Source: an uncultured Sulfuricella sp.
GTDB taxonomy: Bacteria > Pseudomonadota > Gammaproteobacteria > Burkholderiales > Sulfuricellaceae
Direction: 5' to 3'
DNA length: 32,000 bases
NCBI GenBank assembly: GCA_964351305.1
Contig: CAYGNO010000001.1
Span: 5,332-37,331, forward strand
The notes under the pieces were generated by a model, which saw only the letters and a program-made list of their open reading frames with translations, did no database searches and was not told the DNA's origin. The position numbers and the translations under genes are program-made. Positions 2,641 to 30,438 of this stretch are shown piece by piece; within the stretch, counting starts at the first letter, position 1, and every line of letters starts with the position of its first letter.

Positions 2641-2927
2641 GATTCTTCCTCGGTTCGATTTCGGGTTCAAGAAGACGCTCAGCGATAGGAGACCTGATTT
2701 TCTCCCTGCTCCAGTATACGCTGGCCGGATTCGCCATGCACCACAGCCGCGTGGCATCGAGCCGGGCACCGCTCTCGCGGGCCGGCAGGCTGTGCAGGCG
2801 CTTTATGGGGTGACCTCCGGCGGCTTTCCATGTGGCACTTCCAGGCCCGCGACCGCCTGTTGCAGGGCTAGCGCGAGGCGCTGGCCAAAGGGGGCGAGGC
2901 CAATGAGGACGGGACTGAGACTCGCGC

Positions 2928-3734
2928 TCATGATCGGGGGCTCCTGCCGAGGGGGATCGGGGTCAAAGGCGTCTCGCCGTGCGTCAGGCGGCGGCGCCGC
3001 ACATGGCGCAGCAGACCATAGCCCGCCAGGGCGGCGAGCAGATGTTTGAGGGTGTGCCCGCTCACGCTCCCGCTCAGATCGAAAATGGGCCGGTCCAGCC
3101 ATTCCAGCGCCAGCGCCAGGGCGTAGAGCCCCAGCACCGCGAGCAGGTCGCCGCCGCGGGTATAGCGCGCCGGCATCAGCCACAGCAACAGCGGCACAAG
3201 CAGCATGGGGGTGAACTGCACCAGGCCGTAGGCGCGCAGATCACCCGCCCCGGCGGCCTCGGTCGCCACCCACCAGAGCACCGCGGTCGGCCCCGCCACG
3301 AGCAGCGCCGGCAGGGCGGCAAGGCCGCAGCGCAAACCCAGCCGTTCCGTCAGCACGGCGGCGGCGAAACCGGCGAAAACCACGCTCATGGCCAGGCGAT
3401 CCCATGCCAGCCGCGCATCGGTCGGCTCCAGATGATACCAGCCGGAAGCGATGCCGGTGAGGACGAGTCCGGCGTAGAACACGGCATACGCCCAGCGCTC
3501 GCGCGGGTCGGCGAACACCCCAGCGGACAGCCGCGCCAATCCCGCCGCCCCGACGACGAGAAAGAGCGCGTTGGAAGTCACGTCGAGAAAATTCGGTACG
3601 CCCAGCCAGGCGCGCCGGTCGGCGAAGTCGTGATACCACTGCGGCTGGGCAATGGGCGGCACGAAGGCGAACACCGCCGCCACGATGGCGGCGGCGAACG
3701 CGGCGATCAGAGCGATCCGCCCGCGCTCACTCAT
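2928..3734 (-). CDS. Ceramidase-domain (alkaline phytoceramidase-like) polytopic membrane protein
   Basis: Track ORF 2928..3785 trimmed to the ATG at 3734 (MSERGRIALIAAFAAAIVAAVFAF...). It has multiple hydrophobic helices and the SGWYHLEPTD and SGHTLKHLLAALAG motifs that I associate with bacterial ceramidase-domain proteins. Its start overlaps the stop of the upstream ORF (ATGAGTGA). Confidence 0.65.
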   Translation of the reverse strand: MSERGRIALIAAFAAAIVAAVFAFVPPIAQPQWYHDFADRRAWLGVPNFLDVTSNALFLVVGAAGLARLSAGVFADPRERWAYAVFYAGLVLTGIASGWYHLEPTDARLAWDRLAMSVVFAGFAAAVLTERLGLRCGLAALPALLVAGPTAVLWWVATEAAGAGDLRAYGLVQFTPMLLVPLLLWLMPARYTRGGDLLAVLGLYALALALEWLDRPIFDLSGSVSGHTLKHLLAALAGYGLLRHVRRRRLTHGETPLTPIPLGRSPRS

Positions 3735-4008
3735 CCGCCCGCTCCGACAGCAGCAGATAGGTGGCCCGGCCCATGCGCCGGGCATCGGGCAATTCCTCGC
3801 TCCAGAATGGCCAGGACAAGATATGGGCGAGACTCAAATCGACATGGCCGAGGATGCGGTGGATGAGGAACGCCCGCGCCAGCGCCGATTCGTAGGCGCG
3901 CGAGGGCGAGCAGCCAGTCAGCTCCATAAGGCCAAAAACAACGAAAACCCAGAGCGCAAGACTATGCATCATCCCGGAAACCCCGGTTGACCGCTTATTG
4001 GTGTGCAT
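3727..4008 (-). CDS. Small hypothetical lipoprotein (start uncertain)
   Basis: Track ORF 3727..4023 begins with TTG. In-frame ATGs lie at 4008 and at 3972/3969. With the 4008 start it reads MHTNKRSTGVSGMMHSLALWVFVVFGLMELTGC, which gives a basic n-region, a hydrophobic core and an LTGC lipobox. Its 8-nt overlap with the downstream gene supports translation. Confidence 0.45.
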   Translation of the reverse strand: MHTNKRSTGVSGMMHSLALWVFVVFGLMELTGCSPSRAYESALARAFLIHRILGHVDLSLAHILSWPFWSEELPDARRMGRATYLLLSERADE

Positions 4009-4098
4009 AGTGCAATGATTCAAACAGATTTTGCGTCATTTTACCGTCTCACCGATCGGGTGAGCGCGCTACGGTCGTGGGTTCCTCGGGTTGGCCGC

Positions 4099-4863
4099 CT
4101 ATCCTCCGCCGCCCGATGATTTCTGGCGGGTCAGCAATTCCATGAAATCCCCCGGCACCGGAAAAACGATGGTGTTGGTCTTGTCGCCGGCGATGCCGGC
4201 GAGCGTCTGCAGGTAGCGCAGCTGCATCGCCTCCGGCTGGCGCGCAAGGATTTGCGCGGCTTGCAGCAACTTCTCCGAGGCTTGCAGTTCGCCTTCGGCG
4301 TGGATCACCTTGGCGCGCCGCTCCCGCTCCGCCTCGGCCTGCTTGGCAATGGCGCGCACCATCGACTCGTCGATGTCGACGTGCTTGATTTCCACATTGG
4401 CCACCTTGATTCCCCAGGCATCGGTTTGCGTGTCCAGCGCCAGCTGGATGTCCAGGTTGAGCCGCTCGCGCTCGGCCAGCATTTCATCCAGTTCGTGCTT
4501 GCCGAGCACCGCCCGCAGCGTGGTCTGCGCGAGCTGGCTGGTGGCATTGAGAAAGTCCTCGACCTCGATGATCGCCTTCTGCGGATCGATCACGCGCAAA
4601 TACACCACCGCGTTGACCTTGACCGACACGTTGTCGCGCGAAATAACGTCCTGGGTCGGCACATCGAGCACCACCGTGCGCAAATCGACGCGCACCATCT
4701 GCTGGATGCCGGGAATCACTACCACCAGGCCCGGCCCCTTGACCTTCCAGAAGCGGCCGAGCATGAACACCACGCCGCGCTCGTATTCGCGCAGGATGCG
4801 AAACGATGCGGCCACCAGTACGACAATCACCAATGCGACACCGCCAAACCCGAACTCGAACAT
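4099..4863 (-). CDS. SPFH/Band-7 stomatin-like protein
   Basis: Track ORF trimmed to the ATG at 4863 ([63 protein letters not shown]...). An AAGGAG SD lies inside the 3' end of nfeD, and the gap to the nfeD stop is 2 nt. N-terminal TM anchor followed by an SPFH core. Confidence 0.9.
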
Positions 4864-4865
4864 GA

Positions 4866-6263
4866 TTACTCTCCTTTGGTTTCTGCTTCCATGGGTTTGA
4901 CCTGGAGCACCAGGCCGTCTCGGGCCAGAACACGCATTTTCTGCCCGCGCTGCAGGGGAGACCGGGCCTGCACGCGCCAGTTCTCGCCGTGCACCCGCGC
5001 CCATCCTTCAGTTTCGGTATCCTCCAGCATTTCGCCGACGCTGCCGATCAGCTCTTCGTCGCCGCTCACCACCCGGCGGCGGCGCGCCTTGATTGCCATG
5101 CCGCCGACCAGCCCGAGCAGGAGCGCGCTCGCCACGGCGATGGCGACGATCAGTTCGAGCGGGATGCCGAAGCCCGGCAGTTCGGTGTCGATCAGGATCA
5201 CCCCGCCGGCCACGAAAGCGGCAATGCCGCCGATGCCGAGCACACCGAAGCCGGGAAAAAACGCCTCGGCGACCATGAACGAAATGCCCAGCAGGATCAG
5301 CGCCAGCCCGGCGTAGTTCACCGGCAACAGATTCAGGGCATACAGCGCCAGCAGCAGGCAGATCCCGCCAAGCACCCCGGCCACGCCAAAACCGGGCGAG
5401 GTGAACTCGAAGAACAGCCCGTAGACGCCGATCATCATCAGGATCAGGGCGATGCTGGGGTCGGTGATTACCGCCAGCAGCCCGGCGCGCCAGTCCGGCT
5501 CGTAGGCGAGCAGCGGCGCGCCCGCAGTCGCCAGCAGAACTTCCCCGCCGAGCGTGTTCACCTTCCTGCCGTCGAGCTGCCGCAACAGTTGCGGCAGATC
5601 GGCGGCGACGTAATCAACCACCTTGAGCTTCAGCGCGTCCTCGGCCGGCAGGCTGACCGCCTCGCGCACCGCTTGCTCCGCCCACTCCGCGTTGCGGCCG
5701 CGCATCTGCGCCAGGCTGCGGATATAGGCGGCGGCATCGCTGACCTGCTTGCGGCTCATGGCCTGTCTGGAAGTGCCTCCCGGAGCCTGGGCGTCATCGG
5801 GTTTCGCTGCGTTCCCGGTCGGAGCTGGCGCGGGTTTCTTCGGCTCGGAAAAATCGGGCATACCGCCGATCTGCACCGGGGTGGCGGCCCCCAGGTTGGT
5901 GCCCGGAGCCATCGCGGCGACATGGCTGGCGTAGAGGATGTAGGTGCCGGCGCTGGCGGCGCGCGCGCCGCTCGGCGCGACATAGGCCGCCACCGGCACC
6001 TCTGATGCGAGGATCGCCTTGATGATCTGCCGCATCGAGGTATCCAGGCCGCCCGGCGTATCCATCTGCAGCACCGCCAATTGCGCCTTCTGCCCGGCGG
6101 CATGCGCCAGGCCGCGCACGACGTAGTCCGCGGTCGCGGGGCCGATCGCCCCTTCGACCTTCAGCGCCATCACTGGCGGCGAAGCCGCCATCAGCCAGCC
6201 GGGCGCTAGAAGCAGCAGCGCCAGCGCCAAGCGAAATGCAACTGCCCGTATTCGCATTCTCAT
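4866..6263 (-). CDS. nfeD: Long-form NfeD membrane-bound ClpP-class serine protease (stomatin operon partner)
   Basis: 465 aa. Signal-like N-terminus [27 protein letters not shown], then a ClpP-like domain ([16 protein letters not shown]...), a central polytopic block, and a C-terminal OB-fold ([38 protein letters not shown]). Canonical pairing with the stomatin gene directly downstream. Confidence 0.9.
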
Positions 6264-7192: not shown

Positions 7193-8401
7193 CTATTTGT
7201 TGTCCTCATCCACGGCCATTTTCAGCATTTCAAAAATACCAGGGATGGCTGTGGTCACCCGGTTCCAGTTCGGGATGAGCGGCGTGGTCATCGGATTTTC
7301 CATGAACACCCGGGTTGCCATGGCGATGGCTTTGGTAAATGCCTCCACCGCCATTGCCTCTTCGTGCCGGTCAAACCTGAGGCCGTTGATTGCTGCATCC
7401 GCTTCGTATTTCATGATCGTATCCTCGGCCTGCCGCAGGTAGGATACGAGCAAGGATTTGAATAAACCGTCCGAAAACACCACCCCTTCCGAGGCTAAGG
7501 TCCTGAAGATGGATTTGCAGATATCCACCGTCATTTTCATCAACCCCTTGTTTGCATCATCGGCAGAAAGCGCCTGGTGTTTGTGTTCGTAGTTCGCCGC
7601 GATATCCACCTGGCAAACCCGGCGATGCGAATAGTTGCGGTGCACTTCGGCCAGGGAGCCCACCTCCAGCCCCCAGTCCCACGGGATCCGGTTCGTCCGG
7701 GCCAGATCGGTAATCATGCAGATCTCCCCGGAGAGGGGGTAGCGGAAGCTGTCGAGGAAAGCGAGAAAATCATGCGGCCCGATGAGTTGCTGGAGGGATC
7801 TGGCCAGCGGCGTCACCAATAGGCGGGTAACGCGGCCGTTCAATTTGCCGGATACCCGGCTGTAGTACCCTTTGCAAAACACATAGTCCAGGTTGGGATT
7901 GACTACGGGGTAGCACAACCGCGCCAGCAGTTCGCGGCTGTAAGTAACGATATCGCAATCGTGCAGGGCAATGACGTCGGACCGGCCCCGCGCCAGCACA
8001 TATCCGTAAGCAAGCCATGCCGAGCGCCCCTTGCCGCGCTCGCCCACATTGAATCCGTTGCGGGCGAATGTTTCATAGATTTCGCTGATCCTTTTGCCGT
8101 CATTGTGAATGATCTTGACCTCCGTCGAGATCGGCGCCATGAACTCCTGTACCCGCCGGAAATCTTTCTCCGAGCCCTTGTCCAGAACCAGTACGATTTC
8201 GTTCAGATACTTGACCTTGGCAAGTTCCTGGACGATTCCCGGCATGGCCGGTCCTTCGAATTCCGAATAAAGGGCCGGCAATACCAAAGCCACAGGCCTG
8301 GTTTTCGAAAAGCCGTACAATTCGGATTCCAGACGCTCAAGCGAAGGTTTGCCGAGCTGATGGAGGGTCGTAATGATTCCTGACTGGTAAAAATCGGACA
8401 C
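7193..8401 (-). CDS. gpgS: Glucosyl-3-phosphoglycerate synthase-type glycosyltransferase (GT81 family; GpgS/MpgS class, ~400-aa form)
   Basis: GTG start at 8401 with a GGAGGA SD 6 nt upstream. MSDFYQSGIITTLHQLG... N-terminus, then VALVLPALYSEF, GKGRSAWLAYGY, the DxD-like HDCDI motif, GRVTRLLVTPLARSL, YPLSGEICM and WGLEVGSLAEV. These follow the order of GT81 GpgS motifs as I recall them from the mycobacterial and Persephonella enzymes. Donor and acceptor specificity are not provable from sequence. Confidence 0.75.
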   Translation of the reverse strand: MSDFYQSGIITTLHQLGKPSLERLESELYGFSKTRPVALVLPALYSEFEGPAMPGIVQELAKVKYLNEIVLVLDKGSEKDFRRVQEFMAPISTEVKIIHNDGKRISEIYETFARNGFNVGERGKGRSAWLAYGYVLARGRSDVIALHDCDIVTYSRELLARLCYPVVNPNLDYVFCKGYYSRVSGKLNGRVTRLLVTPLARSLQQLIGPHDFLAFLDSFRYPLSGEICMITDLARTNRIPWDWGLEVGSLAEVHRNYSHRRVCQVDIAANYEHKHQALSADDANKGLMKMTVDICKSIFRTLASEGVVFSDGLFKSLLVSYLRQAEDTIMKYEADAAINGLRFDRHEEAMAVEAFTKAIAMATRVFMENPMTTPLIPNWNRVTTAIPGIFEMLKMAVDEDNK

Positions 8402-8415
8402 GGCTGATCCTCCGG

Positions 8416-9114
8416 TTAGATATGTTCGATCTCGTCCTTGGTTTCCGCCTTTTCCGCAGGTTCCCTTTCTATCATCCGCCTCGCCGCGTCAATGCCGCCC
8501 ACGCCGAAAGAAATCGCGAGCGCTGTCACGATGCCGCCGAAGATGATCGTAAAGGCGGCGAGCACGATGCTGGGCGCAATCTGTAGCTGCTCCATGGCCA
8601 TGGCCAGAATCAATACCATCAACAAAGTGCGTACGGCATCGGCCAGGAGTTTGGCGTAGTGATAACCACTGTTTACCGCGGCAATCAATACCCCCTGGCT
8701 GATGAATCCAGTAAGCACGTAGCCGATAATCAGGATCATCGCAGCGGAAAAAACACGTGGCACATAGCCGAAGAACTGCTCGACCAGACTGTCGATCGTC
8801 GGGATATTGAGGGCGCTCAGGCCGATCATCAGGGTGACGACGATCAGCAACCAGAAAACGATAGCGCCGAGGGTGGCGGATGGCTTGTCCCACAGGTCGC
8901 CCTTGCGCATCAGAGTGGTAAAGCCCATCCGGTCGGACCAGCTATCGAAGTTGATGGCTGTCAGGGATTTTATGAGTATGACCCTGACGATCCGGGCCAG
9001 AACGATGCCCAGCACCATGATCACAAGCATGGCCAGAAGGTTGGGCAAAAAAACCTTGAACTTGAGAAATACCTCTTGCAAGGGTTCGAGTATCAGATTC
9101 AGAAATTCCATCAT
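8416..9114 (-). CDS. Polytopic membrane protein built from MscS-associated 'conserved TM helix' type repeats, without an MscS channel domain
   Basis: ATG at 9114 with an AAGGAG SD that overlaps the stop of the upstream GT gene. It contains repeated blocks of the pattern (F/V)(L/V)P-x-(L/V)-x-(A/S)A-x-(I/V)-x-(I/V)-x-G-x-(V/I)-x-(A/T): FLPNLLAMLVIMVLGIVLARIVRV and YVPRVFSAAMILIIGYVLTGFISQ. Three more hydrophobic helices follow, then an acidic C-tail. Family call is by eye. Confidence 0.75.
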   Translation of the reverse strand: MMEFLNLILEPLQEVFLKFKVFLPNLLAMLVIMVLGIVLARIVRVILIKSLTAINFDSWSDRMGFTTLMRKGDLWDKPSATLGAIVFWLLIVVTLMIGLSALNIPTIDSLVEQFFGYVPRVFSAAMILIIGYVLTGFISQGVLIAAVNSGYHYAKLLADAVRTLLMVLILAMAMEQLQIAPSIVLAAFTIIFGGIVTALAISFGVGGIDAARRMIEREPAEKAETKDEIEHI

Positions 9115-9125
9115 GATTTATCTCC

Positions 9126-10391
9126 TTAAGATTGTTTCCAGCTGGTTACGAGGTAATCCTTGTTGTTTTCAAATTCCATGCAAAGTTTTTCGATTTCGGC
9201 TTCCGCTTCAGCCCCTTCCATATCCTTCGCAGCCAGGATGAAGGATGCGGTTTTTCCCAGATAAAGCGGGGTCAGGGACTTTATCAGGTGCTCTGCCGGC
9301 AGTTTCTTCTGGTGGAAAGCGATGGCGTAATCATAGATGACCCGTGTCCACAACCCGATGGGAAAGCAGAACTCGTTGTCGGCCAAGGCGCCCAGCCGTT
9401 CCACTTCCCTGAAATCCCCGGCGCCGAGGATATTGAGCCAAATCTCGCGCAGGTTTTTCAGGCCTTCCCGGAACAGGTTCAACATCCTGGCGGTATTGAC
9501 GTTGACATGTTCGAGCCCGACGGTGTATTCGAAGCCGAAAGTCGGTACCGGCTCGGAGCCGCGTATGGGTGCCCAGGTATTCGCGTAGCTCTCCATCAGG
9601 TCGAAGCTGGCGCTCACCACCTGATAGAGCATGCTGCTCAGGTCGGCGCCGGGGTCCTTGGCGTCGTGGATCTTGGCGCCGAGAAAGGACTGGGCGACCT
9701 TGAAGCCGTTCGCCATCGCCGTCGTGGTCATCCAGATGTCGATACCGAAGCGCGCGACATCCGATTCCCACACGTCCTTGGTCAGGTAGAACTGCGCCAG
9801 CCGGCCGGAAAAACCGAAATCCCCGCCTATCGGCTGCCGCACCCGCTTGCCATAAAGCGCACGGGTAAGGGGGTAGACGATGCTGTTGGTGATGGTCCCG
9901 TCGAACTTGTGCCGGTGATAGAGCGGGGTCACGTAGTCAAAGCCGCCGATCAATACCGGCTTCACCAGCAGCTCGATCCACTCGGGCGTGATGCTCCTGA
10001 GATCGGAATCGACCACCACGCAGGCCTTTGCATCCAGCGTCCGGGCAATTTCGAAAATGCTACGAAAGGCGCTCCCCTTGCCGGGAATGCCCGAATAAGG
10101 GAAGGCGATCTTGGAGATCGGCTCCACCCGGTGATGCAGGAGAATGGCGCTGAAGTCCTCGACGGATGCGTTCTGCACTACGTCCGTGGTACCGTCGCTG
10201 GAGCCGCCGTCGGAATTCACGATCACCGCCTTGTGGGAGGGGAAGTACTTGGCCAGGCCCGCCTGCACCGCGCGCACGACGTGGCCGATGGTTCGTGCAT
10301 TATTGAAACTCGGGATGCCGACTATGATGTCGGCAGCCCCGACCTTCATGATCTGGTCATGCACCTCTGTTCTGAAGGTAATGTCATTCAT
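9126..10391 (-). CDS. GT-A fold glycosyltransferase of unassigned specificity (GT2 / mannosylglycerate-synthase-like layout)
   Basis: The ATG at 10391 overlaps the stop of the upstream gene (ATGA). Motifs present: IIVGIPSFNNARTIGHVV...VNSDGGSSDGT, GIPGKGSAFRS, the DxD motif VVVDSDL, QPIGGDFGFS and FGIDIWMTT. The order GKG...DxD...QPxGG(D/E)...(W/F)GID resembles glyceryl-glycoside synthases (MGS/GpgS type) as I remember them. Confidence 0.8.
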   Translation of the reverse strand: MNDITFRTEVHDQIMKVGAADIIVGIPSFNNARTIGHVVRAVQAGLAKYFPSHKAVIVNSDGGSSDGTTDVVQNASVEDFSAILLHHRVEPISKIAFPYSGIPGKGSAFRSIFEIARTLDAKACVVVDSDLRSITPEWIELLVKPVLIGGFDYVTPLYHRHKFDGTITNSIVYPLTRALYGKRVRQPIGGDFGFSGRLAQFYLTKDVWESDVARFGIDIWMTTTAMANGFKVAQSFLGAKIHDAKDPGADLSSMLYQVVSASFDLMESYANTWAPIRGSEPVPTFGFEYTVGLEHVNVNTARMLNLFREGLKNLREIWLNILGAGDFREVERLGALADNEFCFPIGLWTRVIYDYAIAFHQKKLPAEHLIKSLTPLYLGKTASFILAAKDMEGAEAEAEIEKLCMEFENNKDYLVTSWKQS

Positions 10392-12592
10392 CGTATGGAT
10401 AGCCCCTCTGTTTTTTCGTTACTGTTCACGGTCGCGCAGTTCGGCAGCGGCCCCTTTTCCAGCAGGATGATCTGGAGGTCCATGACGTTCGTTCCCGTCG
10501 GCCCGGTCATGAAATGGCTGCGCTCCCCTGACAAGGCATCGAGTTGTTGAAAGAATCCATAGGAGTTGTTGTCGTCAAGGTAGGCGTCAGGCCCTATTCC
10601 AAGCCGGCGCGCCCGTCCGGTCGTATTGCCGTCGACCAGCGCGCCGGCGGCATCCGTCGGCCCGTCGCCGCCGTCCGTGCCGGCGGAAAGCAGGGTCACC
10701 CCGGATTGCCGGGCTATCTCCAGGGCAAAGGCCAGGGCAAGCTCCTGGTTTCTGCCGCCTTTTCCCGTTCCCCTGACGGTGACCGTGGTTTCGCCGCCGA
10801 ACAGCAGGCAGCGCCGTTCGCCCGCTTCCAAACCGGCTTGAGTCGTGCCTGCGGTCCGCGCCAGGAAGCGTGCGGCGTCGCGCGCTTCACCCTGAAGTTC
10901 GGCGGTGACGATATCCGCGGCAAACCCGAGTTGCCGGGACTTTTCCTGCGCCGCCGCCAGGGCTTGACCAATCCCGGCGACAATCACGTTCCGGGTTCCT
11001 GACAGGCAGGGTTCGCCGGCTTTTACCGTTTCCGGCTCCAGTCCGGCGATACCCCGTTGCAGATAATCCATGACACGCCTGGGGATTCTTTCCTTCAGCC
11101 CGTATTTCTCGATCACGGACCAGGCATAGTCAAAGCTTGATTCGTCCGGCGCGGTCGGCCCGGAGGCGATGACGTCGAGCCGGTCACCGATCACGTCGGA
11201 AAGAATCATCGTCACCATCTGCGCCGGGTAGGCGGCCTGCGCGAGCCGTCCGCCCTTGACGGCTGAAAGATGCTTGCGCACCGCGTTCAGCTCGCCGATG
11301 GTCGCGCCCGCTTTCAGCAGCAAAGCGGTCACCTCCTGCTTGTCTTGCAGCGTCACCCCTTCGACAGGCGCGACCAGCAGCGCTGACGCGCCGCCAGAGA
11401 GCAGGCAGATCACCAGCGTCCTCTCGTCCGCGACCCGCATCATTTCCAGTATGCGCTGCGCGCCCTCCATCCCGGCCTTATTGGGGACAGGGTGAGACGC
11501 CTCTATCTGCTCAACCATAGCCAGTGTTGCCGTGTGGCCTTCTTTCACGACAATCAGCCCGGCGGAAATCCGTTCGCCGAGCAACGCTTCTATGGCCAAT
11601 GCCATGCGCGCCGTGGCCTTCCCCGCACCGACCACAACGATGCGGCTAAAGTCTTCAAGCGGGTACGCGGCACCGGCAACAGTCAGGCATTCGTTCTCAA
11701 GCTTTGCGGCGTTGAGCACGGCCTGGTAGGGATCGACTGCGGCAAGAGCGGCGCTAAAAATATGGGTAAGAATTGATGACGGCATTTCTTCTCCGGCGTT
11801 CCCGGCTGATAGCAATTGCAGCACCGCTTCGTTCCAGCCCAGTGGGCCGGCGCTTTGCGTCTTCATCATGCCGGCTATGGCGATGCGGGAATCGAAACTT
11901 CCGTCCTCGTGCCGGATCAGCACCGGGCGGTCCACCGCCTGGAGCAATGGCAGGTCGTTCAGACTGTCTCCCAGCCCGATGCTGTGGATTTCGCCATACT
12001 CGCGCTCGTAGAGCGCTTTCAGGGTTTTCACGGCAAGGCCTTTGTCGTGTTTGCCCATAATGTGGAAAACCCGCCCCTGGGTCCAGTGCAGGCCGGCGTC
12101 CTCTATGGCTTGCAGAAAACGTGCGTCAGGCGCGCCATCGAAGACGAAAGGTTCGTCGAAATCACGCTGCTTGGCCAGGATAGCGTCATCGCAAGAGAGG
12201 CCCGTCAACCCGGCGACCTCCTCCGCCGTCATGTCTGCAAAGCCGCGTACGCTTGCCCCCAGCCGTTCCCGGAGAGCAACGAAGTGGCGTCTGATCTCCG
12301 CATAGGGCGTGCCGAGCGTGATGCGCTGATAGCCATCCACTGAATCAACCGGCGCGGAGAAGTAGCCCTGTGGAATGAAGATTCCGCCACCGTTTTCGGT
12401 TATGAAAGGGTGGAAGTTGTGCATGCGCTGGCGACAAGCTTCGATTTCAGAGCGCGTTTTGCTGGAACAGAGAACCAGCGGCACACCGTGCGCCTGAATC
12501 AGGCTTAAGGCCGGTAGCGCGTCATTGAAGGAATACCTCACCGCATCGAGCAAGGTTCCGTCCAGATCGCTAAAAAGGATCGTTTTCCGCAT
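10388..12592 (-). CDS. Fusion protein: N-terminal HAD-IIB mannosyl-/glucosyl-3-phosphoglycerate phosphatase-family domain plus C-terminal MOFRL-type glycerate kinase (TtuD/GckA-like)
   Basis: The track ORF starts at TTG 12634; the ATG at 12592 (MRKTILFSDLDGTLLD...) is preferred. N-terminal domain: DLDGT nucleophile motif, LVLCSSKTRSE and GLGDSLNDLPLL, giving a YedP/MPGP-like layout. From about residue 285 onward: DPYQAVLNA, VVVGAGKATARMA, ASHPVPN, LLSGGASALL, LSDVIGD, FGGETTV, GKGGRNQE and GTDGGDGPTDAAGA, the hallmark order of DUF4147+MOFRL glycerate 2-kinases. It is a single uninterrupted frame. Confidence 0.85.
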   Translation of the reverse strand: MRKTILFSDLDGTLLDAVRYSFNDALPALSLIQAHGVPLVLCSSKTRSEIEACRQRMHNFHPFITENGGGIFIPQGYFSAPVDSVDGYQRITLGTPYAEIRRHFVALRERLGASVRGFADMTAEEVAGLTGLSCDDAILAKQRDFDEPFVFDGAPDARFLQAIEDAGLHWTQGRVFHIMGKHDKGLAVKTLKALYEREYGEIHSIGLGDSLNDLPLLQAVDRPVLIRHEDGSFDSRIAIAGMMKTQSAGPLGWNEAVLQLLSAGNAGEEMPSSILTHIFSAALAAVDPYQAVLNAAKLENECLTVAGAAYPLEDFSRIVVVGAGKATARMALAIEALLGERISAGLIVVKEGHTATLAMVEQIEASHPVPNKAGMEGAQRILEMMRVADERTLVICLLSGGASALLVAPVEGVTLQDKQEVTALLLKAGATIGELNAVRKHLSAVKGGRLAQAAYPAQMVTMILSDVIGDRLDVIASGPTAPDESSFDYAWSVIEKYGLKERIPRRVMDYLQRGIAGLEPETVKAGEPCLSGTRNVIVAGIGQALAAAQEKSRQLGFAADIVTAELQGEARDAARFLARTAGTTQAGLEAGERRCLLFGGETTVTVRGTGKGGRNQELALAFALEIARQSGVTLLSAGTDGGDGPTDAAGALVDGNTTGRARRLGIGPDAYLDDNNSYGFFQQLDALSGERSHFMTGPTGTNVMDLQIILLEKGPLPNCATVNSNEKTEGLSIR

Positions 12593-12658
12593 CTGTCCCT
12601 TTCCGAGGTTGCTGTGGTTTTCGTGATTTCTCAATAGTCGATCTGTAATGCCGCATCA

Positions 12659-13522
12659 TTACAGCGACGTCAGATAGGCGGCAAACTCCTCGCGCAAATC
12701 CTCATGTTTCAGGCCAAAAGCCACCTGTGCCTTGAGGTATCCCAGCTTTGACCCGCAATCGTAACGGGTGCCGCTGAAACGATAGGCCAGCAGTTTCTCT
12801 TCATGCAGCAGCGCGGCGATGCCGTCCGTCAACTGGATTTCCCCCCCCGCGCCCGCCTGCGCTCGCGCCAAATGATAGAAGATGCGCGGTGTCAGGATAT
12901 AGCGGCCGACCACCGCCAAGGTGGAAGGCGCGTCTTCCGGGCGGGGCTTTTCAACGAGACCGTTCACCAGCTCCACGCCCGGTTCCAGATGGGTTGCGCT
13001 GACGATGCCGTACTGACCCGTTTGTTCGCGGGGCACGTCCTGCACGCCCAGCACGGAACACAGGTGGCGCTCGTACACTTCCACCATCTGCTTGATCGCA
13101 GGGGGCTCGCCATCGATCAGGTCATCAGCGAGAATCACCGCGAAAGGCTCGTCCTGCACGACCGGCTGCGCGCACAGCACGGCATGGCCCAGTCCGAGCG
13201 CCTCGGACTGGCGGATGTAGATGCAGTTCACGTGTTTCGGGACGACATCCTGCACCGCGCGCAGCAGTTCCTGCTTGCCGCGTGCGGCAAGTTCCGCTTC
13301 CACCTCGTAAGCGGTGTCGAAATGATCTTCTATGGCGCGCTTGTTGCGCCCGGTGATGAACACCATATCGGTGATTCCGGCCGCCACGGCTTCTTCCACC
13401 GCATACTGGATCAGCGGTTTGTCCACCACCGGCATCATCTCCTTGGGGCTGGCCTTGGTGGCGGGCAGAAAACGGCTGCCCAGACCGGCCACCGGAAATA
13501 CGGCTTTCGTGATTCTTTTCAT
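12659..13522 (-). CDS. galU: UTP--glucose-1-phosphate uridylyltransferase
   Basis: The track start 13531 is GTG. The ATG at 13522 has a GGAG SD 8 nt upstream. [45 protein letters not shown]... is a textbook GalU N-terminus, and VEKP is also present. Confidence 0.9.
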
Positions 13523-13662
13523 CGTTGGCACTCCATTAAGACTCCCTAAATTTTTTCCACCGCATTCCAGCCTATTTCATCATAGCCTCGCGTACGCACA
13601 AAAATCATCTACGCTTGCAGATTCTGCGCGGCATCTTGCCGTTATGGATCAAGAAACGCGCC

Positions 13663-14199
13663 TCATTTTTCCACTTCCATGGAGGAATGGTTTGGCGACA
13701 GATCGGATAAAATCAGGTCTGAAAGCGGCTGCATGGCGGCTTCCTTGTCCCTGACCCCGATCTCATCGAGCACCTGAGCGAGGCTCCTGTTAAGGTTGTC
13801 CAGCACCTCGTCCGGCAGTCGATTGAGGGCTTCCGGAAGTACGCCCCGCACTGGCTGCGGAGCACTTGCGACAATTCGCGTCCCTTCATCGGTGAGGAAC
13901 AAGCGGACTATCCGCTGGTCAGGGTCATTGCGCTCCCTTCGAATCAGGTTGCGTTTCGCCAACTTGTCGAGCAGGTTGCTTGCCGTCGAAAGATGCAGTG
14001 ACATGGCCTTGGCGAGATCGGAAACCCGCTGCCCGGGATGTCCCGCCACCTCTCTCAGCACCCACAACTGGGCTCCGCTCAGCCCGCATTGATCCTCGAT
14101 CCGGCGGAAGTGCTGCTGCGCCGAACTGACGATTTGACGGAATTTTTTCAGCGCTTCCAACGATTTCTCGTGCAAACCGGATTCTTGGGTGGCCTTCAT
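13663..14199 (-). CDS. MarR-family transcriptional regulator
   Basis: Track ORF 13663..14397 trimmed to the ATG at 14199 (MKATQESGLHEKSLEALKKFRQIVSSAQQHFRRIEDQCGLSGAQLWVLREVAGHPGQRVSDLAKAMSLHLSTASNLLDKLAKRNLIRRERNDPDQRIVRLFLT...). Classic winged-helix MarR core. The upstream part of the track ORF is translated AT-rich promoter DNA. Confidence 0.85.
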   Translation of the reverse strand: MKATQESGLHEKSLEALKKFRQIVSSAQQHFRRIEDQCGLSGAQLWVLREVAGHPGQRVSDLAKAMSLHLSTASNLLDKLAKRNLIRRERNDPDQRIVRLFLTDEGTRIVASAPQPVRGVLPEALNRLPDEVLDNLNRSLAQVLDEIGVRDKEAAMQPLSDLILSDLSPNHSSMEVEK

Positions 14200-14237
14200 T
14201 TCGAGTCGATTCGTTTTCCAAAGGGGATTATAAATAT

Positions 14238-14270
14238 ATTTGTACAAAACCACTTTTACAATGCCTAATT
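14238..14270 (-). promoter_or_regulatory. Promoter/operator block upstream of marR: TTTGTACAAA palindrome plus ATGCCTAATT box
   Basis: 24 of 33 positions are identical, with identical spacing, to 23147..23179 upstream of the sucrose operon. Read on the minus strand it gives TAGGCA-N17-TACAAA and TTGTAA-N17-TATATT, both sigma70-like arrangements. The palindrome core is TTGTACAA (14240..14247). Confidence 0.5.
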
Positions 14271-14436
14271 TTTGATTATTCTTCAAGCCTTTTTCAACAG
14301 GCATTATCGTGTCGTCCGAATTATAAAATGATGAATCAGTCACTTGCTGCGGCGGAGAGAAAGCCCTGACTTCGAGAAAAAGCATCCTCCCTGGCATCTT
14401 ATGCGGATCAGCGCCGAATTGATTGGCGCCCCGCTG

Positions 14437-14483: not shown

Positions 14484-14867
14484 ATGAATCTTGAGAAAGT
14501 AATCTTTGCGTTTTTTATCGTCCTTGCGCTGACCCTGAACTTCGGTTTTTTTCTCGGCAGCATCGACAACCCGGTCCACCACAGCGTTTATGAGCTGTTC
14601 GCCGCCATCGTCATCAGCCTGATCGCCACCATCCTGAAATTCGGCGATCGCACCCATCTCGGCGCGGTGCTGCTCGCCACCAGCCTGGTGGCCGACTTGC
14701 AGCTGATCGCTGCGGCGATGGTGTGGGCGATGGCGGAACATGTCACGCATTCCGGGCTGACTCCTCACATCATGGCGATCATCGTTTCCCTTTCCGGCGG
14801 CGCGCTGCTCGCCAATATCACCTCGGTGGTGCTGCTGGTAGCCGAAACCATCGCGGTGCGCCGCTGA
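14484..14867 (+). CDS. Small 4-TM membrane protein of unknown function
   Basis: AGGAGG at 14472..14477 is followed by ATGs at 14478 and 14484; the second has normal SD spacing. MNLEKVIFAFFIVLALTLNFGFFLG... contains four hydrophobic helices. It ends 20 nt before the channel gene. Confidence 0.7.
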   Translation: MNLEKVIFAFFIVLALTLNFGFFLGSIDNPVHHSVYELFAAIVISLIATILKFGDRTHLGAVLLATSLVADLQLIAAAMVWAMAEHVTHSGLTPHIMAIIVSLSGGALLANITSVVLLVAETIAVRR

Positions 14868-14887
14868 CCGTCCGGCGAGGGCCTGTC

Positions 14888-16618
14888 ATGCACAATATCG
14901 TGTATGTCCTGCTGCGGCGCATCCATGTGCCGCTGATCGTGCTGGTGTGCGTGTATTCCATTTCCGTTCTGGGTTTTGTCCTGATCCCCGGCGTGGATGG
15001 GCAGGGCAAGCCGTGGGACATGGGTTTCTTCCATGCCGTCTATTTCGTCAGCTTCCTGGGCACCACCATCGGGTTAGGCGAGATCCCCTATCCGTTCACC
15101 GATGCGCAGCGGCTCTGGGCCACGATCAGTATCTATGGCACCGTGTTCGCCTGGCTGTATGGCATCGGCGCCGCCCTGTCGCTGTTGCAGGACCCGGCCT
15201 TTCAGTCGACCCTGCGGGCAAACGCCTTCCGCCGGTCGGTCAGGCTGATCACCGAACCGTTCTATCTGGTGTGCGGCTACGGCGACACCGGCAGCACGCT
15301 GGTGCGTGCGCTGTCCGATGCGGGTTACCGCTCGGTGGTGATCGAGGTCGAGCAGAGCCGCATCGTTGCGCTGGAACTGGAGGATCTGGGGATGCCCGTA
15401 CCCGGGCTGTGCGCCAGCGCCGCCGTGCCCAAAGTCCTGGTGATGGCGGGTCTGGACCGCCCTAACTGTATTGGTGTAATCGCGCTGACCAATGTGGATG
15501 ACGCTAACCTCAACGTCGCGATTACCGCCAAACTGCTGCGTCCCCGCGTTGTCACTATCGCCCGGGCAGAGTCGCGTTCGGTCGAGGCCAATATGCTTTC
15601 TTTCGGCACCGACCAGGTATTCAACCCCTTCGATACCTTTGCCGGGCGTCTCGCCCTGGCGCTGCATTCGCCCGGCATGTTCCTGCTGTATGAGTGGATG
15701 ACTGCCGTGCCGCACGAGACCTTGCGCGAGCCCCTGTTCCCGCCGCACGGGCGCTGGATACTGTGCGGATACGGCCGCTTCGGCAAGGCAGTGTATGAGC
15801 GTCTGGTTGCGGAGGGTGTCCAGGTCACCGTTATCGAGGCCACACCTGAAACTACCGACGCACCGCCCGGCACCATCTCCGGCTCGGGCACCGAAGCCGC
15901 TACGCAGCTCGAAGCCGGCATCAAGGACGCGGTGGGCATCGTGGCCGGCACCGACAACGATGCGAACAACCTGTCCATCATCATGACTGCGCGCGAACTC
16001 AACCCCGGCCTCTTTATGGTCGCACGCCAGAACCAGCACCAGAACAACATCATTTTCAGGGCGGCCCAGCTCGATCTCACCATGAAGCGCGGCAGCGTGA
16101 TCGCCAACAAGATTTTTGCCCTGACCACCACGCCGCTTCTGGCAGAATTTTTACAAGTGGCCCGGCTCAACTCCAACGAATGGGCCAACCAGCTGGTGAG
16201 CCGCATCGGCGGCATATCCGGCGACGAGGTGCCGCAGACCTGGGCGCTGGAAATTACGCCTGCAGCCTCGCCGGCCCTGTATGCCGGGATTGCGAGGGGC
16301 AGGCGGGCCCGCATCGGCGATCTTTGCCGCGATCCGCGCAATCGCGATGAATGCCTGCCTTGCATTGCGCTATTGATCAAACGCGGAGACGCCGAGATTC
16401 TGTTGCCGGCGGACGATGAAATGCTGCGGCGAGGAGACCACATCCTGCTATGTGGCCGCGACGGCGCAGGTCAACAAATGGAATGGATCGCGAAGAACCA
16501 CAACGTGTTCAATTATCTCTATTCCGGCGAAGAGCGCGCCAGCGGCAGTGTCTGGCGCTGGCTCACGCGCGAAAAAGAGCATCCGGCCCACCCGGAAGGC
16601 CCGCCGCCAGAATCCTGA
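14888..16618 (+). CDS. 2-TM pore-loop cation channel with two RCK/TrkA-N domains; non-canonical TTIGLGE filter
   Basis: Track ORF 14723..16618 trimmed to the ATG at 14888 (MHNIVYVLLRRIHVPLIVLVCVYSISVLGFVLI...). The pore helix and filter read FFHAVYFVSFLGTTIGLGE (filter codons 15062..15082). Rossmann motifs are LVCGYGDTGSTLV and ILCGYGRFGKAVY. Confidence 0.85.
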   Translation: MHNIVYVLLRRIHVPLIVLVCVYSISVLGFVLIPGVDGQGKPWDMGFFHAVYFVSFLGTTIGLGEIPYPFTDAQRLWATISIYGTVFAWLYGIGAALSLLQDPAFQSTLRANAFRRSVRLITEPFYLVCGYGDTGSTLVRALSDAGYRSVVIEVEQSRIVALELEDLGMPVPGLCASAAVPKVLVMAGLDRPNCIGVIALTNVDDANLNVAITAKLLRPRVVTIARAESRSVEANMLSFGTDQVFNPFDTFAGRLALALHSPGMFLLYEWMTAVPHETLREPLFPPHGRWILCGYGRFGKAVYERLVAEGVQVTVIEATPETTDAPPGTISGSGTEAATQLEAGIKDAVGIVAGTDNDANNLSIIMTARELNPGLFMVARQNQHQNNIIFRAAQLDLTMKRGSVIANKIFALTTTPLLAEFLQVARLNSNEWANQLVSRIGGISGDEVPQTWALEITPAASPALYAGIARGRRARIGDLCRDPRNRDECLPCIALLIKRGDAEILLPADDEMLRRGDHILLCGRDGAGQQMEWIAKNHNVFNYLYSGEERASGSVWRWLTREKEHPAHPEGPPPES

Positions 16619-16630
16619 GTGGCGTAGGCC

Positions 16631-17542
16631 TTATGCCGTTCCGCTGCGCTGAACCACATGCAGGGGCGGCGCCGAGCCGTCCTTGCCCTGACCGGCGTAA
16701 ACGGTCAGGTGGGGATAGGGGATCTCGATTCCGTGGCGGTCGAAAGCCTGCTTCAGCCGGCGCAGATATTCCCGGCGCACCCCCCACTGTTCCAGCGGCA
16801 ACACCTTGAAGCGGCAGCGCAGGATCACGGCCGAATCGTCCCACCGGTCCACCCCGGCCATTTCCATCGGCTCCAGAATCTTGCCGCCGAAGGCCCCGTC
16901 CTCGCGCATCCCGGCGCCGACCTGGCGCATCACCTCCATCACCTCGTCCGTGTCTTCGCGGTAGGCTACCCCGACGTCGATCACCGCATAGGCGAACCCC
17001 CGGCTCATGTTGGTGACGGTGGTGATGATGCCGTTAGGGATGAAATGGACGTTGCCGTCGTAGTCGCGCATCTTGATGTAGCGCAGGGTGACTTCTTCCA
17101 CCAGTCCGCCCTTGCCGCCCGCCTCCACCACGTCGCCCTGCCTGACCTGGTTTTCCAGCAACAGGAAGAAGCCGTTGAAATAGTCCTTGATCAGGCTCTG
17201 CGCCCCGAACCCCACCGCGATGCCCAGCACCCCGGCAGTGGCCAGGATAGGCGCGATGGAAACGCCCAGTTCGCTCAGTACCACCATGCCGGAAACCACG
17301 TAGATAACAACAGAGGCGATGTAGCGGAATACCCGGCTCAGGGTTTCGATGCGCTTCAGATCCTCCAGGTTGTTATCCGCCTGGCTCCGCAGGTAGGCCT
17401 TTAATAGCTTGATCGCTTTGTTGGACAAGCGCAGCAGCACCCAGCCCAGGGTCAGGATCAGGAGGATGTGCAGGCCGGACTGGGAGAACAGCAGCAGTTC
17501 TTTCATGTTTCCCGTAGCGAAAAAGGCAGATAGTTTGTCCAT
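16631..17542 (-). CDS. MscS-family small-conductance mechanosensitive channel
   Basis: 303 aa. TM helices are followed by GVLGIAVGFGAQSLIKDYFNGFFLLLENQVRQGDVV and a beta-domain (NVHFIPNGIITTVTNMS). The start lies 30 nt after the sucrose synthase stop, with an AGGAAAAA SD. Confidence 0.9.
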   Translation of the reverse strand: MDKLSAFFATGNMKELLLFSQSGLHILLILTLGWVLLRLSNKAIKLLKAYLRSQADNNLEDLKRIETLSRVFRYIASVVIYVVSGMVVLSELGVSIAPILATAGVLGIAVGFGAQSLIKDYFNGFFLLLENQVRQGDVVEAGGKGGLVEEVTLRYIKMRDYDGNVHFIPNGIITTVTNMSRGFAYAVIDVGVAYREDTDEVMEVMRQVGAGMREDGAFGGKILEPMEMAGVDRWDDSAVILRCRFKVLPLEQWGVRREYLRRLKQAFDRHGIEIPYPHLTVYAGQGKDGSAPPLHVVQRSGTA

Positions 17543-17572: not shown

Positions 17573-19969
17573 CTAATCCCGGCCGATCTTGCCGGCCAGC
17601 GGGCGGTACTGCAAATGGTAGAACATATCCAGATAACGCGCGGTTTCCTCACGCTCGGCGCCACTGACGAATTTCCAGAAGCCATAGATACGGGACAGGG
17701 TCATCATGCGCTCGGCGTACTGCTTCCAGGTGTAGTTGGCCGCGACGCGCGCAAGGGCGCCTTGCGACAATCGCTCCCATTCCTGCGGATCGGTCGCGCA
17801 ACGATCGAGAAAATCCGCCATCAGCTTTGTGGCAGCGGCGCCATCGTTGGGATCGATGTGAAAGCCGGAACGATTGTGCCGGATGATCTCCATCGGACCG
17901 CCATGGCAGGTGGCGAAGGTGGGCAGTCCCGAGGCCATGGCCTCGATGATGGTCAGGCCGAAGGCTTCGAACAGAGCCGGCTGCACGAAAATGCCGCGAC
18001 CGTCGGCCACGTAGCGGTACAGTTCGCCCGCCAGGTTCTTGTCCAGGCGCATGCCCAGCCAGCGCACCTGGCCGTCCAGTCCACGGGTTTCCATGATCTG
18101 GTGCATGTAGCGAATTTGTCCCTGCTCTTCGTGGTCGGCGGATAGTCCCGGGTCGATATAGCCGCCAATAACCAGAAGGTTGGCGCGCTCGCGCAGTTCC
18201 GGCGAGGCGCCGTACCAGTCCACCAGGCCGGTCAGGTTTTTGATGTGATCCATCCGTGCCATGGTGAAAATCAGCGGCTTGCTCTTGTCCTCCAGCACGC
18301 CGCGCGCCGAGGGTCCCGGTTCCGCACCGTAGATCATGGCTTCGAGCTCAGGGATCAGGCTGGTGAGGCGGCGTCCGTTATCGCTGTAAGGGAAATAAAC
18401 ATCCGCATCCGCGCCGGGAGAAACGATATTGAACTTCGGGTCGAACAGGTCGATGCCGTTGACCACCCGGTACAGCCCCGGCATGGTGAAAGCATGATAG
18501 CTGCCGTACTGGCCCACCGTTTCATCGGTACCCGCGATCTCCTGATAGGTGCTGGCGATGATGAAATCCGCCGTGTTCATGGCGATCAGATCGGCGGTGT
18601 ACTGGCAGGAAAAATGGTACTGCCCGTCGTTTTCCTTCCAGTACAGATCGGAATGCAGGTATTTGGTCTTTTCCAGGGCATGGGCGATGTTGCACTGGGT
18701 CACTCCCAGCCGCTGGCTGAGCAGGGAGGCCACCAGGTTGCCGTCGGAATAGTTGCCGATGATCAGGTCCGGGCGTCCGCCCAGTTCCGCCAGGGCCTCG
18801 CGTTCCACGTCTTGGGCAAAATCTTCCAGATAAGGCCAGATTTCGAAGCGCGAAATCCAGTGCCGCACGATTTCGCCGTTCTGCTTGTGGAAAGGCACCC
18901 GCAGTATCCAGGTATTGTCGCAGCCGCTGACTTTTTCCAGCCGCTGGTTGCAGGTGGTCTGCCCGGCATCCGGAATCAGGCGGGTGACGATCGTGATTTT
19001 TGGTTCCACCGGCACGCCCTGGCGCGCCAGACGCTCGCGCATCTCCCGCTCCAGTGCCCGGACCTGGTCGAGGATATAGACCACCTGCCCGCCGGTGTCC
19101 GGCAGCCCCAGCACGTTGTCCTGGCCGAAGTAGCCGTGTGGCGAGAGAATCAGCAGGCGCGAGATCATCGGGATGCGCGCCAGGAAAGCCTCCAGGGCTG
19201 TCGGCGAGGGCGCCTCCAGGATGTCCGAGAGCAGGCCCATGGTTTCGGCCACCCGACCGGCATTGTCGCCCCAGCCGGGCGCGAAACCCAACTTGCCCAG
19301 TTTCTCGGACAAAGTTGTCCACGGAGCTTCCTCCTCGATTTTTTCCAGTTCACCGAGTGCGCGTCGCAGCGCTGCGCGCAGGGCAGCCGTGTCGCGGAAG
19401 GTTTTGTCGATCATCAACTGCTGGCCGTCGATGGCATGGACGCTGAGAAAATTCAGGAGTTTTTCCGCTCCTTCCTGCGACCGGTTGAACATGTCGCTGG
19501 ACAACTTCCGGTTGAGGAAGAGCATGCCCTGGCCGATGGAGCGCGGCTCCTTGAGCCGCGGGAACCCGCGCCCGAAAGGCCCGAAGTCGATCTCCAGCAC
19601 GGAAGCCTCCGAATGATCGACCTGCATTTCCTTGAAGCGCAGGAATTCCGGGGTGCCGATCTGTTCGGGAACCACCGAATCCGCGTGGATGCGCAGATAG
19701 ATCCATTGCGCCGCACCTGGCCGTACTGCGAAGTAGGCCCAGGGTGCCTGGAAAACTCCTTCCTGGAGGCGTTCCACGAAATGGCCGAGATGGGTTGCCG
19801 CCAGATCGGCCTGGCCGTGCTCGCGGCACAGCGTTGCAAACTCCTCGCGCAGGTCGGATTGCAGCAGGAACGGGCGGTTTTTCGCGAAATACCGGCGCAG
19901 CAGCGCGTAGACCGGGTCCCGATTTTCTTGCGCGTAGGCGCCTAACTCTTCAATCATTCTTTCCGTCAT
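17573..19969 (-). CDS. susA: Sucrose synthase
   Basis: Track ORF (TTG at 20065) trimmed to the ATG at 19969 ([44 protein letters not shown]...), with an AAGGAGG SD 6 nt upstream. It contains [20 protein letters not shown] and a GT4 C-terminal half ([15 protein letters not shown]). The N-terminus resembles the Nitrosomonas europaea enzyme as I remember it. Confidence 0.9.
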
Positions 19970-24674: not shown

Positions 24675-25136
24675 TCACAGCCCCGCCTGTTGCGCGAGAT
24701 AGGCGAGCAGCGCGCGGCGGCTCAACATGCCGCGCAGCTTGCCATCCGCGCCCACCACGGGCAGCGGCGCGGTGCTGTTGGTGAGCAGCAGCGCCGCTTC
24801 CAGCAGCGGGCAATCCTCGTCCAGCAGCGGGACATCCTTCTTGGCAAATTCTCCCACCGTCAGGCGCTCCAGATCATGCAACCGGTCGGTCAGCATGCGG
24901 CCGGCGTCGCCGGCAAACCTGAGGTCGGACAGCCCGCCTTCCACCCGCGCGCTGGCCGGGATCAGCGCCCGCAGCACGGCGTTGGTGCTGACCACGCCAG
25001 CGAAGCCGCCGCCCTCGTCGCACAGGGGCACATGGTTGATCTGCTTCTCCAGCATGAGCTTGAGCGCTTCCATCAGGTTTGCCTCGGGCCGAAGGCAAAC
25101 GGTGGGCGGACAAATGGGAACGGCCTTGATCGACAT
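24675..25136 (-). CDS. CBS-domain pair protein
   Basis: 153 aa with two CBS-like repeats (NHVPLCDEGGGFAGVVSTNAVLRAL and PLPVVGADGKLRGMLSRRALLAYL). ATG at 25136. Confidence 0.8.
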   Translation of the reverse strand: MSIKAVPICPPTVCLRPEANLMEALKLMLEKQINHVPLCDEGGGFAGVVSTNAVLRALIPASARVEGGLSDLRFAGDAGRMLTDRLHDLERLTVGEFAKKDVPLLDEDCPLLEAALLLTNSTAPLPVVGADGKLRGMLSRRALLAYLAQQAGL

Positions 25137-25170
25137 GTGCTTTCTCCAGCTTAAGTTAAATTATCCACCG

Positions 25171-25818: not shown

Positions 25819-25863
25819 TTATCGTGGCCTTTCTTTTTCAACCTGGCGGAGCATAAGTTTTAA

Positions 25864-29405: not shown

Positions 29406-29415
29406 GGCACAGCCA

Positions 29416-30237: not shown

Positions 30238-30290
30238 GATGGCTTCCTGATGGGCGGATCAGGCCATTTTAACCCAGAAAAAGCTATTGA

Positions 30291-30410: not shown

Positions 30411-30438
30411 GAACGCCGTTTTTAAGTTCAGCGTTTCG

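Follow-up and report, generated by a model that had tools for sequence, protein, structure and literature searches.

A predicted phosphatase-glycerate kinase fusion protein in a Persephonella-type glucosylglycerate operon of a Sulfuricella-like bacterium

One gene in a 32,000-nucleotide (nt) stretch of DNA from an uncultured Sulfuricella sp. (GenBank assembly GCA_964351305.1, contig CAYGNO010000001.1, positions 5,332 to 37,331; hereafter the window, to which all unspecified coordinates refer) joins a HAD-IIB phosphatase of the MPGP/GpgP family to a complete class II (DUF4147+MOFRL) glycerate kinase in a single polypeptide. We named this gene gpgP~glyK. By sequence comparison, it lies within a Persephonella-type operon for the compatible solute glucosylglycerate (GG), and comparison with related operons showed that read-through fusion of the two neighbouring, overlapping genes arose at least three times and was retained. 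On the predicted role of the kinase we lean towards a salvage arm of GG turnover, which would rephosphorylate free D-glycerate to 2-phosphoglycerate (2-PG).

The ORF list contains a minus-strand open frame at 10388..12634, which would encode 748 amino acids (aa) from a TTG codon and 734 aa from the ATG at 12592. A Shine-Dalgarno-like run, GGAAAGGGACAG, precedes this ATG, so that 10388-12592 is the likely gene. A preliminary description of this DNA, which gave no strand, had reported a single uninterrupted frame of 734 codons with a HAD-IIB domain of the MPGP/GpgP family followed by a complete DUF4147/MOFRL kinase, and both statements were borne out, on the minus strand. TIGR01486 matched residues 5-260 with 223 bits against a cutoff of 164.75 (model positions 1-256 of 257). 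In Pfam, DUF4147 matched residues 275-512 with 285.3 bits (gathering score 23) and MOFRL matched residues 595-705 with 132 bits (gathering score 28.3), in the expected domain order. The HAD motifs DLDGT, SSKT and GDSLND start at residues 9, 43 and 208 and align with those of Thermus MpgP (3ztw), the solved structure that the phosphatase half matched with 149 bits. The kinase half matched the solved structures of TM1585 glycerate kinase (2b8n, 300 bits) and PH0495 (1x3l, 295 bits).

The phosphatase half remained below cutoff on the MpgP equivalog models TIGR02461 (208.6 against 244.35) and NF001216 (198.6 against 353), and it scored 182 bits on model positions 416-690 of NF011072, the bifunctional mannosyl-3-phosphoglycerate (MPG) synthase/phosphatase. 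Because gpgS and galU share its operon, this half is most likely a GpgP, a member of the MPGP family other than the mannosyl-specific MpgP. The kinase half retained 61 of 66 near-invariant columns (at least 93% conserved in 31 stand-alone kinases), and the five departures were all conservative (L>M, T>S, P>V, A>S, D>N). These columns argue against a kinase that has left glycerate for a different substrate, e.g. GG or some other hydroxy-acid; so do the strength of the match to TM1585, a proven glycerate 2-kinase, and the ordinary glycolytic contexts of the closest stand-alone relatives. The lineage-specific glycerate 2-kinase models of NCBIfam did score below cutoff (225 against 550 and 194 against 670), which speaks for a changed substrate. 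However, those models are archaeal lineage-specific equivalogs, for which such a score is expected, and we regard a changed substrate as very improbable.

An AlphaFold2 model of the fusion, built from a 41-sequence alignment, had a mean pLDDT of 90 and two well-folded domains; confidence dropped at residues 265-267 and towards the C-terminus (716-734), and nowhere else. At a pTM of 0.64, the relative orientation of the two domains is not fixed in the model. The junction, placed earlier at about nt 11780, falls inside the linker defined by junction alignment with unfused relatives (Table 1).

Both halves were near full length in 120 of 120 homologue clusters among the matches listed. These clusters were drawn from NCBI, JGI, ENA and Logan assemblies and, with taxa taken from source names, belong to Sulfuricella, Sulfurimicrobium and Gallionella. 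Identity ranged from 63 to 91% per half, and the two halves were equally conserved (mean 73% for HAD, 75% for the kinase). Since domains and motifs are intact and conservation is equal, both halves of the fusion look functional. A sequencing or assembly frameshift that merged two separate genes was considered as an artefact; close relatives do carry the two genes overlapping by 4 nt, so that a single indel error could mimic a fusion. It was rejected, and its probability is negligible, because the fused form is found in independent assemblies and in complete genomes. The listed clusters come from independent assemblies, the gene is fused in two complete genomes, that of Sulfurimicrobium lacus and, in a second fused clade, that of Nitrosophilus kaiyonis, and the linkers differ in sequence between species yet keep the frame. 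The preliminary description had advised looking in an independent assembly for a frameshift or stop between the halves, and all of the listed clusters, S. lacus included, had the fused gene. It had also proposed a search for the same architecture in other genomes, where three separate fused clades were found.

The fusion is rare. Only 2 full-length fusions were found in the best 150 hits among 1.84 billion cluster representatives, and the remaining hits of these 150 were stand-alone kinases of ~440-460 aa. A scan of genome contigs with a distant fusion (P0242) gave only two matches, both HAD-only and both in Iainarchaeum metagenome-assembled genomes.

The operon of the window has the order galU, gpgP~glyK, Ggs-like transferase, channel-like protein and gpgS, all on the minus strand (Table 1). 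The transferase start codon overlaps the fusion stop codon as ATGA and the other intergenic gaps are 11-66 nt, so the operon is tight. A promoter and terminator scan of the operon gave counts at chance level. The gpgS product scored 353 bits on NF040724 (model positions 2-399 of 402), below the 700-bit equivalog cutoff, and had no Pfam match; the GpgS of Persephonella sp., with 361 bits, is likewise below that cutoff. JGI annotates homologues of this 421-aa protein, the transferase, as 'glucosylglycerate synthase'. On the Pfam model MGS_GT this transferase scored 26.1 bits, just below the cutoff of 27, while its orthologues scored 35-39 bits. Against solved structures it gave only marginal matches to GpgS structures (E-values 0.05-0.3), and its AlphaFold2 model, from a shallow alignment, was poor (pLDDT 56.7).

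Table 1. Features of the fused gene and of its operon in the window
Feature	Position	Strand	Basis
Fused gene gpgP~glyK, phosphatase + glycerate kinase	10388..12592	minus	single ORF, 734 aa
N-terminal HAD-IIB domain, MPGP/GpgP family, residues 1-262	11807..12592	minus	TIGR01486 + motifs
Hinge/linker, residues ~263-274 (~12 residues)	11771..11806	minus	junction alignment with unfused relatives
C-terminal class II (DUF4147+MOFRL) glycerate kinase, residues 275-734 + stop codon	10388..11770	minus	Pfam domains
galU, UTP-glucose-1-phosphate uridylyltransferase, first operon gene	12659..13531	minus	TIGR01099, 379 bits against cutoff 326.8
Ggs-like GT-A glycosyltransferase, 421 aa	9126..10391	minus	45% identity to syntenic Persephonella sp. 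transferase, full length
Small membrane protein, 232 aa, mechanosensitive-channel TM-helix domain	8416..9114	minus	PF05552 58 bits, NF033912 95.5 bits
gpgS, Methanococcoides/Persephonella-type glucosyl-3-phosphoglycerate synthase, 402 aa	7193..8401	minus	NF040724 GpgS_Meth
MarR-family regulator directly upstream of the operon	13663..14397	minus	PF01047 + PF12802

In Persephonella sp. (L009) the gene order is HAD, kinase, transferase, GpgS. Phosphatase and kinase are there separate proteins of 272 and 439 aa, whose genes overlap by 26 nt, and they are accompanied by a 417-aa transferase and a 403-aa GpgS. Their identity to the window proteins is 41% for the phosphatase, 37% for the kinase, 45% for the transferase and 53% for GpgS. 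In P. marina, GpgS, GpgP and Ggs were reportedly characterised from genes in an operon-like structure, whose membership the operon of Persephonella sp. matches. Relative to the Persephonella GG operon, with which it shares enzyme families and membership, the operon of the window has the phosphatase and the kinase in one polypeptide, where in Persephonella sp. a separate kinase gene stands between phosphatase and transferase. It also adds galU and the channel-like gene, and its host is a mesophilic, Sulfuricella-like betaproteobacterium.

Betaproteobacterial operons occur in both forms. The pair is fused in S. lacus (L001), which keeps galU upstream of the fusion, and in a 2.2-Mb contig (L002); it is separate, with a 4-nt overlap, in a metagenome contig (L012). 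All three have the transferase, the channel-like gene and gpgS. The pair is also separate with a 4-nt overlap in GCA_036704725.1 (L006), together with the transferase. PF05552 is the only domain of the ~232-aa membrane protein, whose gene lies between transferase and gpgS in every betaproteobacterial operon examined (L001 13473-14177, L002 11520-12224, L012 6554-7249). It may serve as a valve reserved for the release of GG. The MarR-family protein is a possible candidate for the operon regulator, and a MarR gene also lies near an unfused operon (L013).

In Nitrosophilus alvini (L010) phosphatase and kinase genes are separate with a 17-nt overlap and stand with gpgS, a 62-aa ORF, a GalT-like gene and the transferase. 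Flanked by the same genes as in N. alvini, the pair is fused in N. kaiyonis (L016; gpgS, GalT-like, a GT20-family gene, transferase) and in a metagenome contig (L003; gpgS, GalT-like, transferase). The GalT-like gene (HIT-family, DUF4921; L010 10712-11716, L003 11293-12291, L016 9304-10359) is upstream of the Ggs-like transferase and directly adjoins it in L003 and L010, while in L016 the GT20 gene (trehalose-6-phosphate synthase-like, 10304-11773) lies between them. A third type of operon has the pair fused in GCA_964650375.1 (L011; gpgS, two GH13_18 sucrose-phosphorylase-like genes, a nucleotidyltransferase) and separate with an 8-nt overlap in a metagenome contig (L014; gpgS, one 568-aa alpha-amylase-family (GH13) gene, a nucleotidyltransferase). 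The two GH13 genes of L011 scored ~220 bits each on TIGR03852, below its cutoff, and the family call for that of L014 was made by Pfam only. If the GalT-like protein is an NDP-glucose phosphorylase, its reaction and that of the transferase would add up to the net reaction of the GH13_18 phosphorylase that takes this operon position in L011 and L014.

Across Aquificota, Campylobacterota and Betaproteobacteria the phosphatase-kinase gene pair is adjoining, overlapping or fused. The overlaps in unfused operons are 4-26 nt, and the order is phosphatase then kinase, as in the fusion. In a neighbour-joining tree of kinase domains there were three fused clades. The betaproteobacterial clade (bootstrap 100) was sister to L006 and P0246 (bootstrap 89), the Nitrosophilus-type clade (bootstrap 100) was sister to N. 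alvini (bootstrap 80), and fused L011 was sister to a clade containing the L014 kinase (bootstrap 84). The HAD tree had the same shape with weaker support. Because each fused clade is sister to an unfused operon, we count at least three separate fusion events.

The junction alignment shows the phosphatase C-terminus (GWNxAVLxLL) joined to the kinase N-terminus through 0-14 residues. The linker is, from this alignment, the site of the former stop and start of two overlapping ancestral genes, and the ancestral state was two translationally coupled genes. A 4-nt indel at the overlap brings the two frames of N. alvini into register in N. kaiyonis, and this explains how the Nitrosophilus fusion was made. 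In the window, an internal GGAG-N6-ATG is found in the linker at M270 (~11783-11800, minus strand), aligned with the start codon of unfused kinases. As an internal translation start it was rejected since the motif is not kept in other fused proteins; it may be left over from the earlier ribosome-binding site or allow weak internal initiation.

The preliminary description held that the fusion physically links the last biosynthetic step with the re-phosphorylation of glycerate. This fits a GG operon, but the fusion is neither unique nor essential, the same gene pair being unfused in sister operons. In the betaproteobacterial clade the fused form has been kept across ~65-90% sequence identity. 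With unfused sister operons in every lineage and no fixed domain interface in the model, the fusion is probably a tolerated read-through that brings equal dosage, not new chemistry.

Known class II kinases are stand-alone proteins of ~400-460 aa that act in serine, glycerate, tartrate or branched Entner-Doudoroff pathways (PMC2063504). Every characterised MOFRL kinase yields 2-PG, and none has hydroxypyruvate reductase activity (PMC2063504). We accordingly rejected 'hydroxypyruvate reductase', the JGI name of many homologues of the fusion. The stand-alone MOFRL kinase P0253, from the same branch of the kinase tree as the kinase of the fusion, is encoded among GH57, pyruvate kinase, enolase, DUF309 and phosphoglycerate mutase genes (L015 390-8637). 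Such gene surroundings favour 2-PG as what this branch of kinases makes, a product that would call for no special handling.

Phosphoglycerate mutase interconverts 2-PG and 3-phosphoglycerate (3-PGA). The preliminary description saw a puzzle of regiochemistry in a 2-kinase placed beside a synthase that uses 3-PGA. No unusual chemistry is needed, because an ordinary phosphoglycerate mutase links 2-PG, the product established for the family (PMC2063504), to 3-PGA. A variant in which the kinase clade of the fusion makes 3-PGA and passes it directly to GpgS is less likely.

In the pathway that we propose, GalU would make UDP-glucose, and GpgS, by its family and context, would couple glucose to 3-PGA to form glucosyl-3-phosphoglycerate, which the N-terminal HAD-IIB domain would dephosphorylate to GG. 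The C-terminal MOFRL domain would convert free D-glycerate and ATP to 2-PG, and this would enter lower glycolysis and, via phosphoglycerate mutase, the 3-PGA pool. The GpgS/GpgP route does not pass through free glycerate, which would come from a second sugar enzyme of the operon, as its co-substrate or product. Here this enzyme would be the Ggs-like transferase, in whose place a GH13_18 sucrose-phosphorylase-like enzyme would stand in L011 and probably in L014. In the 2007 work of Fernandes, the characterised Persephonella enzyme of the Ggs family reportedly used free D-glycerate. The logic of the kinase comes from two neighbours that the preliminary description had not seen, GpgS (7193-8401) and the second glycosyltransferase (9126-10391). 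By analogy, the salvage role would parallel that of the fructokinase beside sucrose synthase and SPS/SPP in the same window.

Several points weigh against a salvage role. If the Ggs-like transferase only makes GG, a kinase of the same operon would compete with it. The transferase is linked to P. marina Ggs via synteny, its identity to the Persephonella sp. protein and the JGI names. A role in salvage only would leave unexplained why the kinase is tightly paired with the phosphatase and not with the transferase. The trees are neighbour-joining only, and no recognised GG hydrolase or phosphorylase was found among the remaining ORFs of the window.

The constant pairing can also be read as an anabolic feed, of the kind suggested in the preliminary description, in which the kinase captures glycerate from the environment or from glycolate or hydroxypyruvate metabolism and supplies phosphoglycerate for GpgS. 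Kinase, GpgS and phosphatase would then make up a single line from glycerate to GG, the kinase perhaps making 3-PGA and the intermediate perhaps being channelled. The kinase always adjoins or is fused to the phosphatase, gpgS is always in the same operon, and repeated fusion could reflect selection for co-assembly. The betaproteobacterial hosts are Calvin-cycle autotrophs, in which phosphoglycolate salvage could yield glycerate. However, 3-PGA is abundant in autotrophs, so that a dedicated supply is not obviously needed; the characterised MOFRL kinases give 2-PG only, whose O-2 cannot be glucosylated; and the pTM of the model and its low-confidence hinge give no sign of a fixed inter-domain channel. 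The gene pair is also present in Persephonella and Nitrosophilus, which use the reverse tricarboxylic acid cycle to fix carbon and would be without RuBisCO-derived glycolate. For the same reason the link to photorespiration-like metabolism suggested in the preliminary description does not hold in general. The anabolic feed is less economical than salvage, and we consider it rather unlikely.

In all lineages examined the kinase and phosphatase genes stay together, as they would in a switch of the PFK-2/FBPase-2 kind. In such a switch the HAD half would also free glycerate from 2- or 3-phosphoglycerate and the kinase would reverse this step, so that the pair would set the glycerate level. The operon is otherwise without a source of free D-glycerate for a single-step synthase, a gap that the switch would fill. 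Against this, glycosyl-3-phosphoglycerates are the substrates of the solved and characterised proteins of the MPGP family, in which the HAD half falls; the sequence gives no hint of an altered substrate; and an unregulated pair would be an ATP-wasting futile cycle. A switch is improbable, only slightly less so than a changed kinase substrate, and neither of the two has positive support.

A wider version of the salvage role is less likely than not: the phosphatase-kinase pair may mark an overlooked fourth enzyme of the GG system, and the operon may encode a full make-and-break cycle. In the synthetic direction, GpgS and the phosphatase would drive GG formation irreversibly. In breakdown, the Ggs-like transferase would run in reverse, like sucrose synthase, either alone or with the GalT-like enzyme of Nitrosophilus; in other lineages the GH13_18 phosphorylase would replace it, and GG would yield activated glucose and D-glycerate. 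The kinase would pull the breakdown by removing glycerate, and the fused protein would stand at the exit of both branches.

Among known systems, the class II glycerate 2-kinases of Thermotoga maritima (TM1585/2b8n) and Thermoproteus tenax (GK) have the full DUF4147+MOFRL architecture that is also found in the fusion; unlike them, the fusion has a phosphatase at its N-terminus and belongs to an operon for a compatible solute. The bifunctional MPG synthase/phosphatase (NF011072) has the same HAD-IIB family fused to an enzyme of the metabolism of the same solute, and the SPS/SPP fusion, present in the window, is another fusion of compatible-solute enzymes. Both of these join consecutive steps, synthase then phosphatase, whereas the partner in gpgP~glyK is a kinase, and its substrate lies outside the two-step GG route. 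Operons of GG phosphorylase (GH13_18, GGaP) often carry a glycerate kinase, gpgS or gpgP, the family of the kinase not being stated there (PMC7178133), and thus likewise link a glycerate kinase to GG metabolism. In L011 and L014, GH13_18-like genes share the operon with the phosphatase-kinase pair, as in GGaP operons; the window has no GH13_18 gene and would have the Ggs-like transferase in that role. A literature search, with the founding J. Bacteriol. papers outside its reach, brought up no account of this domain fusion and none of a kinase gene within an operon for GG biosynthesis.

Genes for sucrose metabolism are clustered at 17573-23074 (minus strand), 4 kb away from the GG operon. The cluster comprises an 830-aa sucrose synthase, an 855-aa SPS/SPP fusion (19950-22517) that matches TIGR02472 and TIGR02471, and a PfkB fructokinase-like gene. 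By its gene content, the organism would encode two adjacent compatible-solute systems, each with a kinase for the released aglycone. Other stress genes at 14723-17542 and 1762-6263 are a TrkA-domain potassium channel, MscS, an NfeD/SPFH pair and a tandem universal stress protein (Usp). The ~20-kb stretch around the GG operon looks like an osmotic-stress island. Long ORFs without a Pfam or NCBIfam match are found at 124-1509(+), 28146-29426(-), 29317-30486(+) and 24727-25863(+). Some of them lie opposite real genes that they overlap and are probably spurious ORFs of the kind that GC-rich DNA is expected to contain.

Public databases already contain the architecture described here, but label it uninformatively or wrongly. 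'HAD-IIB family hydrolase', 'hydroxypyruvate reductase' and 'cell wall biosynthesis glycosyltransferase' are names to be corrected; 'glycerate 2-kinase' is also in use. All families involved are known, and the fusion is neither a new kind of enzyme nor a new mechanism. What is new is the combination, its recurrence and the conserved gene pair.

As a protectant against salt stress and scarcity of nitrogen, GG is widespread, and its synthesis, by GpgS/GpgP or by Ggs, is textbook knowledge. To our knowledge, the supply and disposal of free D-glycerate and the breakdown of GG are poorly settled. Recurrent fusion and overlap are strong 'Rosetta stone' evidence that places the kinase in the GG pathway. 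The same phosphatase-kinase pair occurs in Persephonella, the genus in which that pathway was worked out. Because the kinase gene overlaps or is fused with the phosphatase gene in Aquificota, Campylobacterota and Betaproteobacteria, with fusion at least three times over, our analysis suggests that the kinase belongs to the GG pathway as an overlooked part of it.

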